DNA from: Escherichia phage BYEP01
Strand: one strand, 5' to 3'
Sequence record: OR757453.1
DNA length: 64,000 nucleotides
Positions within the stretch are counted from its first letter, which is position 1, and every line of letters starts with the position of its first letter. Shown piece by piece: positions 1 through 40,505 of the stretch. The translations under genes were made by a program, and so were the position numbers. The notes under the pieces were generated by a model that searched no databases, was not told the origin of the DNA, and was given only the letters and a program-made list of their open reading frames with translations.

Positions 1-3000
1 TGGTAAAGCACCGATATCAGATGGTTGAGGAGGGTTACCTCCATCAAATACCTGAACAAAACTCGACCAAGAGTTTTTGGTTTTCTGCCATGTACGTGTC
101 CAACGGGTTGTACGTGCTTCTGGAGTTGTTGGATAAGTAATCCAATCTTGGTAAAGCGAATCAAGTGTGTTACCAAACTGAGTCAGTGTACCAGGAGATT
201 TAACTTCTTCGCCACGTTCTAAGTATGGAAGCCCAGTCACTTCATTAGTTTTTTCAACCATTTTAAAATAACCCGGGAACTGGTTATAAGTGGCCGAATC
301 GTTAATATCAATTGACCAGAATCCTACAGTATCAGATGTTGGTGCACGGGTATATAAATCAGATGTTTTATTACCCTGAGAACGAATTCTCGAGTTAACA
401 GTTAAGCCACCTGAGTTTATAGTAACACCTTTGGCAACGATTAAGCCTTCACCAATCGTTACTTGACCAGATGCATTGTTAATAGCTAAAGGACGTAATC
501 CATTAAATCCGCCAGTCTGATCACCAGATGTAGTGAGCATAAAATATGTGCTCACGCCATCATTCCTGATAAAGAATCCATAATTACCATTTATTGCTCT
601 AAAGGCATTTGCTGATTTACTGGTGAATTCGCCATTAGCAGTAACTGAACGACCGAATGTTGCAACGCCATTCACATTCATCAAACCGGAAGCATTAATA
701 TTTATTGGCATTACAGTACCATTAATGCTAAACGCTATATTCCCGTCTTTATTACGTTGAGAATAAAAGTGATAAGATGTTTCATCACCAACTTCAAATA
801 CAGTAGAACGTGCTGTATCTGATCCGCCACCAAACTGATTTCCCCAAACTTTGATAGCCATCGTCTGCGCTGGGTTAGTTCCAGTCTGAGGTCCTTTCTC
901 AAAAATCAGACGAGTTGCCGTTCCAGTATTAGAAATAGTTAATGTACTATTTGCCGAAACTGATCCACCAAACGTAGCAGTACTAAATGATACAAGAGGG
1001 GCACTCAGATTCATTTGTTGGGTTAAGGTTAGTGAACCATTAACCGTCTGTGCAATATCCCTACGAATGAACTGAGATGAATCTAGACCATCCAATAAAT
1101 TTGTATCAGCAGCTTTTGCTTTTAACGGCAAATAATTTGCTAATACACGGTTTAATTCATATGGTGATACCGCATAGCTATTTTTCTCATATGATTCTAA
1201 TGGCTGTGTTGAACCTACCGTATCATTACCAACGAATGTAATTGAACCAGATGAAGTTTTAACAAAACCTCTTATCGCAGTAGTAGCTGCCCAGGTAGGT
1301 TCACTCTGCACAATCCATTTTAAATTTTTTGGAGATACAGCAGTATTTGCTGACGTTCCAGTCACAGTTTCAGACTGAGTTGCAACTTTAATAACACCTT
1401 CTTGTGCTTCAGTAGATTTAGTACCTAAAAGCTTTTTAGGAGTTATTAAAACATTATCTAATTTTCCTGCAGCAGCTTCAACTTGTGTAGCTACGCGAAG
1501 TGTACCACGCTGTGTCTCATTTGCTTCAAGAATATTAAGTGTATAATGGTCCCAGAGAGTTCCTGATTCAACTAATCCAGATAGAGCAACAACAGAAGTA
1601 CGATCAGTACTATTAAATCTGGTTTTAATTTTTAATGGTGTAGAGATACGAGTATCGTCGACGCCTGCGTCGAATTCAACTTGTGTAGCAATTTCAGCTA
1701 TACCGCTTAAACTTTCAGTTGCTTTACGGTCATTTAAAGTTTTAGGAGTGACTGCACGAGTATAATCAGTTCCTGTATTAACTTCACTTTGCGTAGCAAT
1801 TTCAATTAAACCAATTCTTCCATCAGTTGATGTCTTTTTATGTAACGTTTCTGGCGTTACAACAGCATTTGCCCATCCTTGCTGACTTTGTCCAGCAATT
1901 ACTTCACTTTCAACTGCTAAAATTACTGCACCTTGCTGTGTTGGAGTAGCTTTATACTGATCCAAAGCTTTAGGTGAAACAACTAAATTATTAGTGTTTT
2001 TATTATAAACATTCGTACCATTTAATTCACGGCTAGAAGCTGGAGTAGCACCTGCAGTAGATACAAAAGTTACAATACCAGATAATGATTCAGAACCTTG
2101 ACGAGCTTGAAGCTTTTTAGGAGTGATGATTGTAGTATCATCAGTACCTGCGTTAGTTTCTTGCTGCGTCGCAATTTCAGCAACACCTCTGCGAGTTTCT
2201 GTAGCAGTTCTTTCATTCAGCTTTTTAGGAGTAATGATAAGATCATCAGCAAAAGAGAATGTGGTGTTCTGATTCACTTGAGCAGTAGTTGCTATTCTTG
2301 CAATACCTCTACGAGTTTCAGTAGCAGTACGATTAGCTAACGTTTCTGGAGTAATTGCTAATTCTTTTTGTGGAGAATTTTCTAAATCGACATTAGCTTG
2401 AGCTTGTGTAGCTAAAGCAATTACGCCTAATCTCGCTCTAGTAGAATCATTTAAAGAATCAACTCTTTCTACGGTTGGAACGTTTTGCTGTACTACCCAG
2501 TATTTTCCGTCAGAATCTTCTATATAAGCAAGCTCTAAAACTGGAACATAATTAGTTTCACCGTTAAAAACTAATTCTTGAACAGTTACCCATTCAGCTT
2601 CAGGTGGATATTCTGAACGTTTTGGGAATTGCAGCAATTGAACTGAAGAAGCAATTTTATCTTCACCGGCAGCTTTGATTTTAACTGTTTGTCCTTTTCT
2701 CATGTAATTCATGGAAATTTTAACAGTATCACCAACAGAAATATTAGTTGGAAGCTTAAGCTCAATTGTCTGAGCTGTTCCGTTATTCGCACCAAATACC
2801 ATAACTTCTTCATTTGGACGAATATTTGAATTAGTTGTTATAATACGTAAACGTGCTTTATTATCCCCGTCAAACAATCTCCACAATTTTTCATTATCAT
2901 CAAACATCAAGAAACCGTCAATCGTTGTACGGCCTTCAATGGAATGAGTTCCAACTTCTTGTATTGAAGTCGTTTCATCGTATGTAGTAACAATTGTATG

Positions 3001-8269: not shown

Positions 8270-9298
<1,029 letters not shown>

Positions 9299-9299
<1 letters not shown>

Positions 9300-9847
9300 T
9301 GAAACAATACCAATTTTTAATTAAAGATATCCTGGAAAATGGCTATGAAACTGATGATCGAACAGGCACAGGAACAATTGCTCTGTTCGGTACTAAATTA
9401 CGCTGGGATTTAACTAAAGGTTTTCCTGCAGTAACGACTAAGAAGCTCGCCTGGAAAGCTTGTATTGCTGAGCTCCTTTGGTTTTTATCAGGAAGTACTA
9501 ACGTAAATGATTTACGATTAATTCAGCATAATTCATTAATTCAAGGTAAAACAGTCTGGGATGAAAATTACGAAAACCAAGCAAAAGATTTAGGATATCA
9601 TAGTGGTGAACTTGGTCCAATTTATGGAAAACAATGGCGTGATTTTGGTGGTGTAGATCAAATTGTAGAAGTTATTGATCGTATTAAAAAACTACCAAAT
9701 GATAGGCGTCAAATCGTTTCAGCATGGAATCCAGCTGAACTTAAATATATGGCATTACCGCCCTGTCATATGTTCTATCAGTTTAATGTGCGTAATGGTT
9801 ATCTTGACCTTCAGTGGTATCAACGATCAGTAGATGTTTTCTTGGGT
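9299..9847 (+). CDS. td: thymidylate synthase, exon 1 (183 codons)
   Basis: Track ORF 9287..9850 starts at TTG; ATG 9299 gives MKQYQFLIKDILENGYETDDRTGTGTIALFG...QRSVDVFLG, recognised as T4 Td exon 1; TAA at 9848-9850 is the first intron triplet. Confidence 0.93.
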
Positions 9848-10110
9848 TAATTGAGGCCTGAGTATAAGGTGACTTATACTTGTAATCTATCTAAACGGGG
9901 GACCTCTCTAGTAGACAATCCCGTGCTAAATGTGTAGGACTTTGGTTCTACCTAAATGCCTAACGACTATCCCTTTAGGGAGTAGGGTCAAGTGACTCGA
10001 AACGATAGACATCTTGCTTCATCAAGATGGAGATATAGTCTGATCTGTATGGTGACATGCAGCTGGATATAATTCCGGGATAAGATTAACGACCTTATCT
10101 GAACATAATG
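9848..10110 (+). ncRNA. group I self-splicing intron in td, ORF-less (263 nt; no I-TevI reading frame)
   Basis: Starts TAATTGAGGCCTGAGTATAAGGTGAC..., ends ...GAACATAATG; contains GGGTCAAGTGACTCGAAACGATAGAC and GAGATATAGTCTG core elements recalled from the T4 td intron; flanking exons join into one TS frame. Confidence 0.85.
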
Positions 10111-10422
10111 CTTCCATTTAATATTGCATCATATGCTGCATTAGTTCATATTGTAGCTAAGATGTGTAATCTTATTCCAGGAGATTTGATATTTTCTGGC
10201 GGTAATACTCATATCTATATGAATCACGTAGAACAATGTAAAGAAATTTTGCGTCGTGAACCTAAAGAGCTTTGTGAACTGGTAATAGGCGGATTGCCTT
10301 ATAAATTCCGCTATCTTTCTACTAAAGAACAATTGGAATATGTTCTTAAACTCAGGCCTAAAGATTTCGTTCTTAAAGGTTACGAATCACACCCTCCTAT
10401 TAAAGGAAAAATGGCGGTGTAA
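10111..10422 (+). CDS. td: thymidylate synthase, exon 2 (103 codons)
   Basis: LPFNIASYAALVHIVAKMCNLIPGDLIFSGGNTHIYMNHVEQCKEILRREPKEL... continues Td; the track ATG at 10108 is the last three intron nt. Confidence 0.93.
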   Translation, partial: LPFNIASYAALVHIVAKMCNLIPGDLIFSGGNTHIYMNHVEQCKEILRREPKELCELVIGGLPYKFRYLSTKEQLEYVLKLRPKDFVLKGYESHPPIKGKMAV

Positions 10423-10709: not shown

Positions 10710-10989
10710 ATATAAATCCGACTTTGATGTTAATATTCACCGTGGTACATTTTGGGGAAATTACGTCGGTAAAGATGCTGGCAGCCGGGAGGCTGCCATT
10801 GAATTATTCAAAAAAGATTTTATACGTCGAATTAAATCCGGAGAAATAACTAAAGCACATTTAGAGCCTTTACGTGGAATGAGGCTAGGATGCACATGTA
10901 AACCAAAGCCGTGTCATGGTGATATAATAGCTCATATAGTTAACCGATTGTTTAAAGACGATTTTCAAGTTGAGGACTTATGCAATTAA
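10663..10989 (+). CDS. hypothetical protein (108 aa; nrdA.1-position) with DUF4326-like CxC...CHGD motif
   Basis: ...[26 protein letters not shown]...[19 protein letters not shown]; overlaps previous ORF by 47 nt and nrdA start by 10 nt. Confidence 0.6.
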
Positions 10990-12413
10990 TTAATGTTATC
11001 AAAAGTAGTGGTGTTTCTCAGAGCTTTGACCCACAAAAAATTATTAAAGTTTTATCTTGGGCAGCTGAAGGAACATCTGTAGATCCTTATGAATTATATG
11101 AAAATATTAAATCATATCTCCGTGATGGAATGACCACTGATGACATTCAGACTATTGTCATTAAGGCTGCTGCGAATTCTATTTCGGTTGAAGAGCCTGA
11201 TTATCAATATGTAGCTGCACGCTGTTTAATGTTTGCTCTTCGTAAGCATGTTTACGGGCAATATGAACCACGTTCATTTATTGACCATATTTCTTACTGC
11301 GTAAATGAAGGTAAATATGACCCTGAATTGTTGTCAAAATATTCAGCAGAAGAAATTACATTTTTAGAATCAAAAATTAAGCACGAGCGGGATATGGAAT
11401 TTACTTATTCCGGGGCGATGCAATTAAAAGAAAAATATCTAGTTAAAGATAAAACCACTGGTCAAATTTATGAAACTCCACAGTTTGCATTTATGGCTAT
11501 TGGAATGGCACTGCATCAAGATGAACCTGTTGATAGATTAAAACATGTCATTCGTTTTTATGAAGCAGTATCTACTCGACAGATTTCATTGCCAACTCCT
11601 ATTATGGCTGGTTGTCGTACTCCAACTCGACAGTTTAGTTCATGCGTTGTTATTGAAGCAGGTGATTCGCTGAAGTCTATCAATAAGGCTTCTGCTTCAA
11701 TTGTTGAGTATATTTCTAAACGAGCTGGAATTGGCATTAACGTTGGTATGATTCGTGCCGAAGGTTCTAAGATTAGCACAGGTGAAGTGCGTCATACTGG
11801 TGTTATTCCTTTTTGGAAACATTTTCAGACTGCAGTTAAATCATGCTCACAGGGTGGAATTCGTGGCGGCGCTGCTACTGCTTATTATCCTATTTGGCAT
11901 TTGGAAGTTGAAAATCTTCTCGTTTTGAAAAATAACAAAGGCGTAGAAGAAAACCGTATTCGTCATATGGATTATGGCGTCCAGCTGAATGATTTGATGA
12001 TGGAACGTTTTGGAAAGAACGACTACATTACTTTGTTCAGTCCACATGAAATGGGTGGTGAGCTTTATTATTCTTATTTTAAAGACCAAGACCGTTTCCG
12101 TGAATTATATGAAGCCGCAGAAAAAGACCCTAATATTCGTAAAAAGCGTATTAAAGCCCGTGAACTGTTTGAATTGCTCATGACTGAACGATCAGGAACA
12201 GCAAGGATTTATGTACAGTTCATAGATAATACGAATAACTATACTCCGTTTATTCGTGAAAAGGCACCTATTCGTCAGAGCAACTTGTGTTGTGAAATTG
12301 CTATTCCAACAAATGATGTGAATAGTCAACAAACCCGTTTAATCAAAATTAAGAAGTCGGATGTAGCTAAGTTTTATGAAGCTAATCCTGGCGGTATAAT
12401 TCAAAGCAAATAA
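10980..12413 (+). CDS. nrdA: ribonucleotide reductase large subunit NrdA, N-terminal fragment (477 aa; about 449 NrdA residues plus 28-aa unrelated tail)
   Basis: [31 protein letters not shown]...RQSNLCCEIAIPTNDVNS then QQTRLIKIKKSDVAKFYEANPGGIIQSK-stop; class I RNR alpha homology up to the NLCxEI active-site motif. Confidence 0.9.
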   Translation: MQLINVIKSSGVSQSFDPQKIIKVLSWAAEGTSVDPYELYENIKSYLRDGMTTDDIQTIVIKAAANSISVEEPDYQYVAARCLMFALRKHVYGQYEPRSFIDHISYCVNEGKYDPELLSKYSAEEITFLESKIKHERDMEFTYSGAMQLKEKYLVKDKTTGQIYETPQFAFMAIGMALHQDEPVDRLKHVIRFYEAVSTRQISLPTPIMAGCRTPTRQFSSCVVIEAGDSLKSINKASASIVEYISKRAGIGINVGMIRAEGSKISTGEVRHTGVIPFWKHFQTAVKSCSQGGIRGGAATAYYPIWHLEVENLLVLKNNKGVEENRIRHMDYGVQLNDLMMERFGKNDYITLFSPHEMGGELYYSYFKDQDRFRELYEAAEKDPNIRKKRIKARELFELLMTERSGTARIYVQFIDNTNNYTPFIREKAPIRQSNLCCEIAIPTNDVNSQQTRLIKIKKSDVAKFYEANPGGIIQSK

Positions 12414-12461: not shown

Positions 12462-13172
12462 ATGGATTATTCTAAAATTTACAATAACCTTATTTCTAAA
12501 GCTAAGAATAGAAAATTAGATTGCTATACCGAATCACACCATATTATACCTCTGTGTATTGGCGGTTCTGATACAAAAGAAAACCTGGTAGATTTGACAC
12601 CAGAAGAGCATTACATAGCTCATCAATTATTAGTAAAGATATATCCAGATAATCATAAATTGATATTTGCCGCTAATATGATGTGTGTTTATTCTGAAGA
12701 TAATATTGAACGAAAGAACACCAATAAACGTCATGGGTGGCTTAGAAGAAAATTGGCTATTTCTGTATCTGAAAATAATAAAGGCAAACCGGCTTGGAAC
12801 AAAGGTATTCCTATGTCTCCAGAAGTTAAATCTCGACTTCAAACATCTTGGGTGTTTACATTTCCGGATGGTCATGAGGAAATTCATCGAGGTCTTAACG
12901 AATTTTGTAAAGAGCATAATTTAAATGCATCTGCGATGTCAGCCGTTTGTAAAGGTAAACGGGCGCATCACAAAGGATTTAAGTGTAAGAAATTGGATAA
13001 GATTTCAGAGCTTGATAATTTAGTTTTCGTCAGTAAACCTCATCCAAAGGGATTAAAACCCCATAACTTAATTGCTGTAAAAATAAACGGTATAGAATAT
13101 CAATCAATACATCGAGCATCTAAAGCTTTAGGAATTACTAGAAAAAAGGTAGAAGAATTAAATGAATATTGA
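12462..13172 (+). CDS. HNH homing endonuclease (Mob-like, 236 aa) inserted within nrdA
   Basis: GAGGA RBS then ATG; MDYSKIYNNLISKAKNRKLDCYTESHHIIPLCIGGSDTKENLVDLTPEEHYIAHQLL = HNH motif; paralogous to ORFs 39813..40505 and 58945..59757. Confidence 0.85.
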   Translation: MDYSKIYNNLISKAKNRKLDCYTESHHIIPLCIGGSDTKENLVDLTPEEHYIAHQLLVKIYPDNHKLIFAANMMCVYSEDNIERKNTNKRHGWLRRKLAISVSENNKGKPAWNKGIPMSPEVKSRLQTSWVFTFPDGHEEIHRGLNEFCKEHNLNASAMSAVCKGKRAHHKGFKCKKLDKISELDNLVFVSKPHPKGLKPHNLIAVKINGIEYQSIHRASKALGITRKKVEELNEY

Positions 13173-14151
13173 TTATGAATTTGTAGATGAATTTTACGAA
13201 GATGATGAGTATACTACAATAGAAGTTATTGAAAACAGGGGAGAAGTGGGGCTTTGTACCCTTAGCGCATTTGTGTTGGATAACTTCGATTGGCAAGACC
13301 AAGACAAAATTAATGAATTAGCAGAAGTTCAAGTTCGTGCTCTTGATAATCTTTTGGACTACCAAGGATATCCAGTTCCTGAAGCAGAAAAAGCTAAAAA
13401 GCGTCGAAACCTTGGCGTAGGTGTTACTAACTATGCAGCTTGGCTGGCAAGTAACTTTGCTTCTTATGAAGATGCTAACGATTTAACACATGAACTATTT
13501 GAGAGATTGCAGTATGGACTCATTAAAGCATCCATTAAGCTCGCCAAAGAAAAAGGACCTTGCGAATATTATTCAGACACTCGTTGGTCTCGAGGCGAAT
13601 TACCTATCGACTGGTACAATAAAAAGATTGACCAAATCGCAGCTCCAAAATACGTTTGTGATTGGGACGAACTTCGATCTGAACTCAAACAGCATGGAAT
13701 TCGAAATTCTACTTTATCCGCGTTGATGCCGTGTGAATCATCCAGTCAGGTATCTAACAGTACAAACGGTATCGAGCCTCCACGTGGACCAGTCTCTGTT
13801 AAAGAATCAAAAGAGGGTTCCTTTAATCAAGTCGTGCCCAATATTGAGCATAACATAGACCTCTATGATTATACGTGGAAATTAGCTAAGAAAGGTAATA
13901 AACCTTATCTTACGCAGGTAGCTATTATGCTGAAATGGGTATGTCAATCAGCTTCAGCGAATACATATTATGACCCGCAGATTTTTCCAAAAGGAAAGGT
14001 TCCAATGTCTGTAATGATTGATGACATGCTATACGGATGGTATTATGGCATTAAAAACTTCTATTATCATAATACCCGTGATGGTTCTGGTACTGATGAT
14101 TATGAAATAGAAACTCCCAAAGCTGAAGATTGTTCATCCTGTAAATTATGA
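13162..14151 (+). CDS. nrdA: ribonucleotide reductase large subunit NrdA, C-terminal fragment (329 aa; 26-aa novel leader then NrdA from GEVGLCTLSAF)
   Basis: MNIDYEFVDEFYEDDEYTTIEVIENR-GEVGLCTLSAFVLDNFDW...NSTLSALMPCESSSQVSNSTNGIEPPRG...YYHNTRDGSG...CSSCKL matches class I RNR alpha C-terminal half; ATG lies within last codons of the HNH ORF. Confidence 0.9.
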   Translation: MNIDYEFVDEFYEDDEYTTIEVIENRGEVGLCTLSAFVLDNFDWQDQDKINELAEVQVRALDNLLDYQGYPVPEAEKAKKRRNLGVGVTNYAAWLASNFASYEDANDLTHELFERLQYGLIKASIKLAKEKGPCEYYSDTRWSRGELPIDWYNKKIDQIAAPKYVCDWDELRSELKQHGIRNSTLSALMPCESSSQVSNSTNGIEPPRGPVSVKESKEGSFNQVVPNIEHNIDLYDYTWKLAKKGNKPYLTQVAIMLKWVCQSASANTYYDPQIFPKGKVPMSVMIDDMLYGWYYGIKNFYYHNTRDGSGTDDYEIETPKAEDCSSCKL

Positions 14152-14202: not shown

Positions 14203-14878
14203 ATGAGCACAGTTTTTAATACAAATCCAGTTGATGTTTTAACAGAACCTATGTTCTTCGGTTCAGGTCTTGGAATTGCACGTTATGATATTCAACGACA
14301 TAAGGTATTTGAAGAACTTATTGAACGTTCGCTCTCGTTTTTCTGGCGGCCTGAAGAAGTAAACTTAATGATGGATGCTGCACAATTTAACAAGCTCCCA
14401 GAACACCAAAAATCTATATTTATCAATAACTTAAAATACCAGTCATTGTTAGACTCCATCCAGGGGCGTGCACCATCTGCGGTACTTATGCCATTGCTTT
14501 CAGATCCAAGCCTTGATACATGGGTAGCAACATGGACTTTTAGCGAAACTATTCACAGTCGTTCATATACCCATATCATGCGTAACTTGTTCAATGACCC
14601 TGCTAAGGTATTTGATGAGATTGTACTAGATGAAGCTATCATGAAACGTGCTGAATCTATCGGTCGCTATTATGATGATGTTCTGACTAAAACCCGTGAA
14701 TGGGAAAATGCTAAAGAATTTACAGAACTAGCTAAAGAATCTCCTGATGCTGTTTTTCGTTTAAATCGAGCTATTAAACAAGAAGCCGAAGCTAAACGTG
14801 CTTTAATGAAATCTCTTTACCTCTGTTTGCACGTTATTAATGCCTTAGAAGCTATTCGTTTTTATGTATCTTTTGCGT
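14203..14878 (+). CDS. nrdB: ribonucleotide reductase small subunit NrdB, exon 1
   Basis: MSTVFNTNPVDVLTEPMFFGSGLGIARYDIQRHKVFEELIERSLSFFWRPEEV...ALEAIRFYVSFA; frame interrupted by TAA at 14878-14880 at the intron boundary. Confidence 0.9.
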
Positions 14879-15182
14879 AAAATGCGCCTTTAAACGGTAA
14901 CGTTTATCGAAAACTCCTTTAATTGCTGGAAAGTCCTTTATAGGAAAACTAGCAGCCAAGGTTTTGCTTGCACCTTTAATTAGCATAATATAAATGATTA
15001 TACTTTTAAGAGGATGCACAATTGCAAAGCAAGGTTCAACGACTAGTCTTCGGACGTAGGGTCAAGCGACTCGAAATGGGGAGAATCCCTCTGGGATTGT
15101 GATATAGTCTGGTCTGCATAGTAATATGTAGCAGTTCATAAGAGAACGGGTTGAGAATTAGCGAGCTCAATCGAACATAACG
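14879..15182 (+). ncRNA. group I self-splicing intron in nrdB, ORF-less (about 304 nt; no I-TevIII remnant)
   Basis: Contains AGGGTCAAGCGACTCGAAA and GATATAGTCTG core elements shared with the td intron; ends in G; t(14878)+gt(15183-15184) reconstitutes a Cys codon giving FYVSFA-C-TFNFHKNMEIMEGNAK; exact boundaries inferred. Confidence 0.75.
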
Positions 15183-15685
15183 GTACCTTTAACTTCCATA
15201 AGAACATGGAAATCATGGAAGGTAATGCCAAGATTATGAAGTTCATTGCACGTGATGAGCAGCTTCACCTTAAAGGCACCCAATATATTATTCGTCAACT
15301 TCAATCCGGTACTGATGGCGATGAATGGGTTAAAATTGCTCAAGAGTGTGAACAAGAAGCAGTTGATATTTTCATGGAAGTTAACCGCCAAGAAAAAGAC
15401 TGGGCAGTTCATTTATTTAAAGATGGCGATGTTCCTGGATTAAATACAAATAGCATGTGGAGCTTTATTGATTACTTAACTGTATCTCGTATGAAACAGT
15501 GCGGTCTTCCATGCCCAATTACCGATGCTCCGGTTAAACATCCGTATCCTTGGATTCGTGAATACCTTAATTCTGATAATGTTCAATCCGCGCCACAAGA
15601 AGTAGAACTGTCATCTTACCTTGTTGCACAGATTGATAATGATGTTGATGATAAAGTTATGATGAGTTTTAAAAAATACTTTTAA
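15183..15685 (+). CDS. nrdB: ribonucleotide reductase small subunit NrdB, exon 2
   Basis: ...TFNFHKNMEIMEGNAKIMKFIARDEQLHLKGTQYII...SAPQEVELSSYLVAQIDNDVDDKVMMSFKKYF; RNR beta C-terminal half. Confidence 0.9.
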
Positions 15686-39812: not shown

Positions 39813-40505
39813 TTATAAATTAACTGTTTTTCTAAGTATTCTTAGTTTGTACATTGATAATCCAGTAGCTTTAGAAGCATCTTTCATGCATTTATACTTA
39901 ACACCATTTACTTCTATAGGTTTAGCAGCTGGGTTATTAGCTCCTGAATTATCTGGCATGTTATCTTTAATTTTCTGAATAGATTTAGCGGAATGTTTCC
40001 TTCCATACATGCCATTATTTTTACCTGATTGATTGATAGAATGCAATCTTTTAGCTTCTTCAGTCCATTTTGTTGGGTTCATTCTTTTAGTTTTACTAAT
40101 TTTACTTCCCCACGTAATTGGACGATTTTTCATGAGTTTTGACATATATTGTTTATGTTCTTCCGTATGGTGTTTTCCGTAAAATGGATTACCTTCACCT
40201 GATTGAAGTTTTGCCATTTTACGACGTTCCCAGGCGTAAGATTTATTAACGTGTCTTTCATGAGTATTTGAATTCATTCCCATACATATAACGGCTTTAA
40301 TTATACCGTAATGGTTTGGATGAATTTTAGCTAAAAGTTTATGAGCTATAAAATGCTCTTCAGCTGTTAGTTCTACCAAATTACACTTATCATCTGTACC
40401 ACCCATACATCTAGGAATTATATGATGAGTTTCAGTGTATCCATTAAGGCGAGCCCGATTCTGGGCTCTATTAATTAAATTATCATATATTAATTTATAA
40501 TTCAA
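39813..40505 (-). CDS. HNH homing endonuclease (Mob-like, 230 aa) between uvsW and uvsW.1; apparent TTG start
   Basis: MNYKLIYDNLINRAQNRARLNGYTETHHIIPRCMGGTDDKCNLVELTAEEHFIAHKLL (HNH motif); start codon TTG (rc of 40503-40505) overlaps uvsW stop; AAGAGG RBS 7 nt upstream. Confidence 0.8.
   Translation of the reverse strand: MNYKLIYDNLINRAQNRARLNGYTETHHIIPRCMGGTDDKCNLVELTAEEHFIAHKLLAKIHPNHYGIIKAVICMGMNSNTHERHVNKSYAWERRKMAKLQSGEGNPFYGKHHTEEHKQYMSKLMKNRPITWGSKISKTKRMNPTKWTEEAKRLHSINQSGKNNGMYGRKHSAKSIQKIKDNMPDNSGANNPAAKPIEVNGVKYKCMKDASKATGLSMYKLRILRKTVNL

Follow-up and report, generated by a model that had tools for sequence, protein, structure and literature searches.

The closest described system is the td intron of phage T4, which carries I-TevI, and the td/I-TevI biology behind our statements on splicing, homing and resistance has been reviewed (PMC2988022, PMC5009752). 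In this system, the 3' end of the I-TevI ORF overlaps with the ribozyme core (PMC3073962), and a conflict between translation of I-TevI and folding of the intron has been documented (PMC2988022). It is also known that endonuclease genes decay while the ribozyme is retained, in a cycle of gain, degeneration and loss of homing endonucleases (PMC2988022; PMC5009752). The T4 nrdB intron with its defective I-TevIII follows this Goddard-Burt cycle; the endonuclease gene decays by deletion and the ribozyme stays. Sandegren and Sjoberg (JBC, 2004) reportedly described deletions in T-even intron endonuclease genes. Engineered td introns, namely those of Galloway Salvo, Coetzee & Belfort 1990, the 393-nt ClosTron RAM and SIBR, lack the ORF loop in L6a and keep P6/P6a. 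The part of PMC2729099 that cites Galloway Salvo et al. 1990 states that td introns with a shortened P6a or L6a self-splice, and SIBR-type td introns function in vivo in heterologous genes (PMC8565351). Our literature search did not find a natural ORF-less td intron described. Here we describe such an intron in a 64,000-nt stretch of DNA from Escherichia phage BYEP01 (OR757453.1), which we call the window.

The source is a T4-like phage, a Tequatrovirus. Over its leading 24 kb, the window is ~95% identical to Tequatrovirus genomes, with 94-96% of the length covered. The gene order is frd, a 68-aa ORF, td, homologues of nrdA.2 and nrdA.1 (DUF5496 and DUF4326, respectively), nrdA, nrdB and denA, and it matches the T4 order. 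The features around td are as follows.

8515..9096: frd
9299..9847, + strand: td exon 1, 183 codons, ending VDVFLG; its final base is the U of the U.G wobble of P1
9848..10110, + strand: td group I intron, 263 nt, without an endonuclease ORF; matches RF00028 and is ~96% identical to the T4 td intron core
10111..10422, + strand: td exon 2, 103 codons and a stop, beginning CTTCCATTT (LPF...); its first three bases, CUU, are the P10 strand

Exon 1 ends in ...GTTTTCTTGGGT (also given as ...TTCTTGGGT), and the exon-intron borders lie at 9847/9848 and 10110/10111. Joining of the exons gives an intact thymidylate synthase (TS) of 286 aa, 274 of whose residues (96%) are the same as in T4 TS. The splice junction GGT/CTT is located at the same codon as in T4, after the GGT of Gly183. 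The 68-aa ORF (9093..9299) overlaps both frd and td via ATGA-type junctions. It is missing from T4, in which frd abuts td, and is found in PD112, Shinka and GRNsp7. The Shinka homologue is annotated as DUF4858, and a Pfam search with the window ORF gave no match at E<=0.01.

The intron begins with TAATTGAGGCCTGAGTATAAGGTGAC (in a longer reading, TAATTGAGGCC), ends with GAACATAATG, and carries GGGTCAAGTGACTCGAAACGATAGAC at 9985..10010 and GAGATATAGTCTG at 10030..10042. The initial annotation had read td as a gene split by a 263-nt group I intron related to that of T4 and devoid of an I-TevI reading frame, and all parts of this reading stood. Its coordinates and quoted strings were all correct on re-reading. 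The Rfam covariance model RF00028 (group I intron) matched 9838..10062 over its full length (model 1-253 of 253) with 64.1 bits and an E value of 6e-14. This match is far beyond chance, because the gathering score is 50 and the E value is so low. The subgroup is IA2, which we assign through the T4 td orthologue. The intron has the same insertion site as that of T4, and megablast revealed 93-97% identity between the 263-nt intron and the td introns of GenBank phages, the best being 97.3%. Among ATG-initiated ORFs within the intron, the longest on either strand has 28 aa, and tblastn with T4 I-TevI found no match in or near td. These results confirm, at the level of sequence, a T-even td group I intron without I-TevI. 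The sole tblastn match of I-TevI in the window lies at 39840..40034 on the - strand (E 1e-5) and covers residues 169-234 in the C-terminal part, which we take to fall in the DNA-binding domain. This match is presumably a free-standing seg-type endonuclease, far from td.

The predicted ribozyme elements of the window intron are listed below.

9856..9861, + strand: internal guide sequence GCCUGA, which pairs with exon positions 9842..9847 (UUGGGU) to form P1
9934..9951, + strand: P6a hairpin GUAGGAC-UUUG-GUUCUAC, with arms at 9934..9940 (GUAGGAC) and 9945..9951 (GUUCUAC); placed by the alignment with T4 and the other variants and by endpoint arithmetic, and recovered by the free-energy fold
9965..9969, + strand: 5' strand of P7, GACUA, which pairs with 10036..10040 in a pseudoknot with P3; site of the guanosine-binding helix
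10036..10040, + strand: 3' strand of P7, UAGUC, preceded by the conserved J8/7 GAGAUA
10110, + strand: omega-G at the 3' splice site; the end ...AACAUAAUG is identical in 14 aligned intron variants

The canonical td structure, taken after the T4 model and including P1, the P7 pseudoknot and P10, was imposed on the sequence. All 79 of its 79 pairs are standard in the window. We then aligned the window with 13 phage records, two contigs from metagenomes and one from IMG/VR (alignment A1, 17 distinct natural variants), after long L6a inserts had been trimmed. Across these variants 98.7% of pair cells are standard, compared with 30-45% after a shift of the 3' partners by 1-3 columns; in the 254/250-nt introns described below, the P6a columns are not meaningful because they hold unrelated hairpins, and the unpaired helix-8 cells are alignment artefacts. 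Eleven pairs are compensatory, with both sides changed, and none of 500 shuffles reached this number (0/500). Helices P3, P4, P5, P6 and P7 are invariant (for P7, 5/5 pairs in 17/17 variants), and P8 contains three compensatory pairs. J3/4, J6/7 and J8/7 are also invariant, and the window residues there are the same as in T4. Where the window differs from T4 within helices, pairing is kept: A-U becomes U-A in P8, C-G becomes U-G in P9, and G.U becomes A-U in P9.2.

The U9847-G9856 wobble at the 5' splice site is invariant in 17/17 variants, and two other P1 pairs covary in the same alignment. We kept P1 at 6 bp because a seventh pair, C9841-G9862, competes with the first P2 pair for G9862. P10 is formed by GAG at intron positions 9853..9855 with the CUU of exon 2. 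Its third pair (A1 columns 16/279, that is, 9853/10113) covaries, being G.U in seven variants, U-A in four, A-U in two and unpaired in four, including T4. Because intron nt 6 covaries with the wobble base of Leu184, P10 constrains a synonymous site in the exon. Furthermore, an unconstrained free-energy fold of 9838..10120 yielded P2, P3, P4, P5, P6, P6a, P7.1, P7.2, P8, P9, P9.1 and P9.2, although the z-score of the free energy of the whole RNA is modest (-1.98). All nested helices of the group I core are recovered in this fold. The window intron retains a complete conserved group I ribozyme, and we infer that it splices itself using guanosine. It shares with the T4 td intron the host gene, the insertion site, P1-P10, the U.G 5' splice site, the omega-G and UAA as the first intron codon.

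What the window intron does not share with T4 is a single block. When it was aligned to the 1017-nt T4 td intron and eleven further phage variants, it was collinear with T4 apart from 755 nt, T4 intron nt 94-848, which are wholly missing. The block comprises the operator/late promoter of I-TevI, the hairpin in L6a that sequesters the ribosome-binding site (RBS), and codons 1-239 of 245. Because these nucleotides are missing, the window intron lacks the homing, autorepression and the translation-splicing conflict of the T4 intron. The ORF-bearing loop had been described in the initial annotation as reduced to a few dozen nt, but it is in fact a 4-nt TTTG loop (9941..9944) on a 7-bp P6a stem, and the deletion junction lies within this loop. 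Its residues are those that flank the ORF insert in full-length introns, with the T derived from GGACT and the TTG from TTGGTTC. Microhomology at the junction amounts to <=1 nt; a microhomology-mediated deletion between GGACT and GGAAT was rejected, as it would leave one T fewer than seen. The engineered td introns consist of T4 DNA and linkers, whereas the window intron occurs naturally, carries substitutions of its own and has a tighter loop of 4 nt. The end of the I-TevI gene can still be read downstream of the junction.

9943..9963, + strand: I-TevI remnant, last six codons and stop, TGG TTC TAC CTA AAT GCC TAA (WFYLNA*; WFYINA* in T4)

The bases of the remnant double as P6a-3', J6a/6, P6-3' and J6/7. 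Since they are part of the ribozyme core, these codons are, by themselves, no proof of a former ORF.

The short td intron is not unique to the window. We searched 50,697 phage records by megablast with the 263-nt intron and called an intron short when at least 80% of the query was covered in one place. Matches were found in 273 records, 37 of which have a shortened intron. These belong to at least five length classes, which were set by direct alignment and by how far the match extends in the record.

262 nt: 215Ecol030PP, PD112 and CE1; GGAC-TTTG-GTTC junction, as in the window
254 nt: N2, 236Ecol005PP, HMD-9 and CJY920; GTTCTTTTGAAC hairpin, read directly in N2 and CJY920, with 236Ecol005PP and HMD-9 assigned by their 254-nt span
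254 nt: GRNsp7; CAGCAGTAGCTG instead of P6a
250 nt: SEA1; GTTCGAAAGAAC instead of P6a
315 nt: Klebsiella phage EI
319-320 nt: Shinka, HP3, MLP2, PYps55T and about a dozen more; last ~50 nt of I-TevI kept
445 nt: e11/2, G28, F1, FN and FL18; 55-codon I-TevI stub, annotated in e11/2

In the loci extracted for comparison, the 254-nt introns occupy positions 1001..1254 in N2 (L006), CJY920 (L010) and GRNsp7 (L013), and the 250-nt intron occupies 1001..1250 in SEA1 (L007). Phage N2 also has a free-standing GIY-YIG gene annotated 'I-TevI' on the opposite strand, ~570 bp downstream of td. The 262-nt introns of vB_vPM_PD112 (MH837626), vB_EcoM_CE1 (ON229909) and 215Ecol030PP (PP328843) share the P6a junction of the window, and td in these records is annotated only as two thymidylate synthase CDS. 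Compared with them, the window has one extra G in the 9932 region, and its 3'-half haplotype is WL-3/N2-like whereas theirs is T4-like. Outside P6a, one position separates the 3' half of the window intron from that of WL-3, a full-length intron of 1016 nt, and 6-7 positions separate it from those of the other 262-nt introns. Full, 262/263-nt and 254-nt loop states are all found on each of the two haplotypes. Since the one TTTG junction sits on both haplotypes, this indicates recombination inside the intron, not recurrent identical deletions. I-TevI fragments can still be recognised in the 315-, 320- and 445-nt alleles, which shows repeated independent deletions.

A 300-nt query spanning the spliced junction matched 578 records. 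In 399 of them it was covered in one place, as expected of intronless or short-intron alleles, and in the remainder it was split by an intron of ~1 kb. Among the 578 td-bearing records we estimate ~360 intronless, ~180-215 full-length and 37 shortened alleles, figures that are rough because megablast counts from different queries are mixed. When IMG/VR was scanned for a 26-nt core pattern, one full-length intron came up, and a metagenome scan gave six loci: four introns of 1011-1016 nt, one divergent intron of 1024 nt with an I-TevI homologue, and one ClosTron-type construct. There was no natural ORF-less td intron among the loci from these two scans, which served to add covariation diversity and give no prevalence estimate. 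The construct, at 2296..2688 of contig Ga0180732_1015345 (L020), is a 393-nt td intron with a TCTAGA linker replacing most of I-TevI, and it lies antisense in a marker gene beside an FRT site. It is a ClosTron-type retrotransposition-activated marker, that is, laboratory vector DNA in a metagenome assembly. Among these phages, intronless, endonuclease-bearing and endonuclease-less td alleles, which represent the three states of the homing-endonuclease cycle, coexist and recombine.

A second intron in the window, in nrdB, has been shortened as well.

14203..15685: nrdB, with exons 14203..14878 and 15183..15685
14879..15182: nrdB group I intron, 304 nt compared with 598 nt in T4; Rfam 68.7 bits

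The longest ORF in the nrdB intron has 36 aa, and none encodes an endonuclease. Spliced NrdB is predicted to be intact, with 392 aa. PD112 and CE1, which have the td junction of the window, also carry a 304-nt ORF-less nrdB intron, 99.7% identical to the one described here. The td and nrdB introns of the window have thus apparently both lost their endonuclease genes. Compared with the I-TevIII truncation of T4, the loss in the window is complete, and it is seen in both td and nrdB.

We are fairly confident that the td intron of the window is a splicing-competent, non-mobile, I-TevI-resistant intron made by deletion of the endonuclease gene. The initial annotation had left two origins open, an ancestral endonuclease-free intron and endonuclease loss, and the comparisons favour the second. 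In the first, the 263-nt form would descend from the original endonuclease-free td intron without ever having carried the ORF, and I-TevI would have entered the L6a of that intron later. Such a history agrees with the view that group I introns were originally ORF-less and were invaded later (PMC3073962), with the presence of short td introns in two genera, Tequatrovirus and Gelderlandvirus, and with the clean hairpin that the P6a stem and TTTG loop make in the free-energy fold. It also draws on the 254/250-nt class, in which the whole P6a is replaced by one of three distinct, unrelated self-complementary 12-mers. Because these hairpins are unrelated to P6a, simple deletion cannot yield them, and this class may be an old ORF-less lineage and a possible sequence donor. 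For the window allele, however, an ancestral lack is unlikely. Its loop residues exactly match the insert-flanking bases of ORF-bearing introns. Its 3' half, near-identical to that of full-length WL-3, does not form a separate lineage, and intermediates with I-TevI fragments exist. The intron diverges from T4 by ~4% whereas the exons diverge by 8.1%, and this lower divergence argues for recent exchange. In addition, the nrdB intron of the window plainly arose by deletion, since a late-promoter-like TATAAATA, AAGAGG and an ATG remain in it with no ORF behind them. Because the junction explains the loop, and because of the intermediates, the WL-3-like 3' half, the low intron divergence and the nrdB deletion product, we infer that the direction of change was loss.

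It is far less probable that the intron no longer splices and that td is a pseudogene with a 183-aa product, compensated by host ThyA. The td gene is dispensable for T4 on thyA+ hosts, and the unspliced reading does end after 183 residues, at the TAA that is the first intron codon. Nevertheless, every helix is intact, the J3/4, J6/7 and J8/7 residues are all as in T4, and splicing is seen in laboratory td introns whose L6a deletions are of similar or greater size. Exon 2 is in frame and of full length, and in the two exons the td codons that differ from T4 comprise 47 synonymous and 12 nonsynonymous ones. Both exons therefore appear to be under purifying selection, and a dead td is hard to reconcile with this ratio. 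An assembly collapse or a contaminating engineered td deletion construct is scarcely credible: ORF-deleted td introns are common laboratory reagents, as the metagenome example above illustrates, but the window intron carries no linker or vector sequence, it differs from T4 by ~10 natural substitutions, of which several are compensatory, its junction is identical in three independently sequenced phages, and the flanking 24 kb are normal Tequatrovirus DNA.

Under the preferred reading, loss of the endonuclease gene, the window allele most likely arose through a single ~755-nt deletion within loop L6a of an I-TevI-bearing intron, and homologous recombination among Tequatroviruses would afterwards have shuffled it. 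The RNA would fold into P1 with its U.G, P2, the P3/P7 pseudoknot, P4-P6a, P7.1, P7.2, P8, P9-P9.2 and P10. It would bind free guanosine, and two transesterifications would release the intron and ligate the exons, giving the 286-aa enzyme. Without I-TevI, the intron has no means to cut intron-less td alleles or to drive its own homing. The I-TevI homing site is interrupted by the intron, so the allele should resist the I-TevI of a co-infecting phage. Persistence may follow from the fact that td would be restored only via precise excision. Loss of the ORF also ends the conflict of I-TevI translation with intron folding.

Between the two ORF-less introns lies a split nrdA with an endonuclease gene inside it.

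10980..12413: nrdA-a
12462..13172: HNH ORF, 236 aa, HNH / I-HmuI-NUMOD-like (Pfam PF22083, 8.7e-10)
13162..14151: nrdA-b

The NLCCE active-site motif lies on one side of the split and the LCTLSAF motif on the other, an arrangement like that of the 'genes-in-pieces' reductase of Aeromonas phage Aeh1. At least 80% of the 1-kb nrdA/HNH segment is covered in 34 phage records, and the same layout is annotated in 12/12 of the matches listed. Neither mobE nor nrdB.1 is present between nrdA-b and nrdB. The td intron is located ~2.35 kb upstream of the HNH ORF and the nrdB intron ~1.7 kb downstream. There is a small chance that the HNH endonuclease cuts the intact nrdA of a co-infecting phage and acts as a shared driver of trans-homing, both introns being carried along by co-conversion. 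MobE mobilises the defective nrdB intron of T4 (PMC2790892). Trans-homing of this kind, if true, could maintain and spread the td and nrdB introns although neither encodes an endonuclease. Among the phages compared, no association was seen between the HNH gene and the state of the td intron. The gene occurs with full-length td introns (FL33, FL34, fPS-90) and with short ones (236Ecol005PP, e11/2), and it is missing from PD112, whose nrdA, unlike that of the window, is not split.

The ORF-less td architecture is already in GenBank and hence is not unique, and degeneration of T-even intron endonuclease genes is known. The window allele is new in sequence (its best match is the 97.3% given above) and, judged from its haplotypes, mosaic. 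It would be a clean natural case of the endonuclease-lost stage in the best-studied mobile-intron system, although it adds little alone. For intron-based tools, the natural 250-263-nt variants may serve as minimal td ribozymes that come pre-tested. The 'core creep' idea could be tested with the short introns in which the P6a hairpin has no relation to that of the I-TevI-bearing form. Furthermore, the td allele population would provide material for rates of endonuclease loss and recombination in phages.
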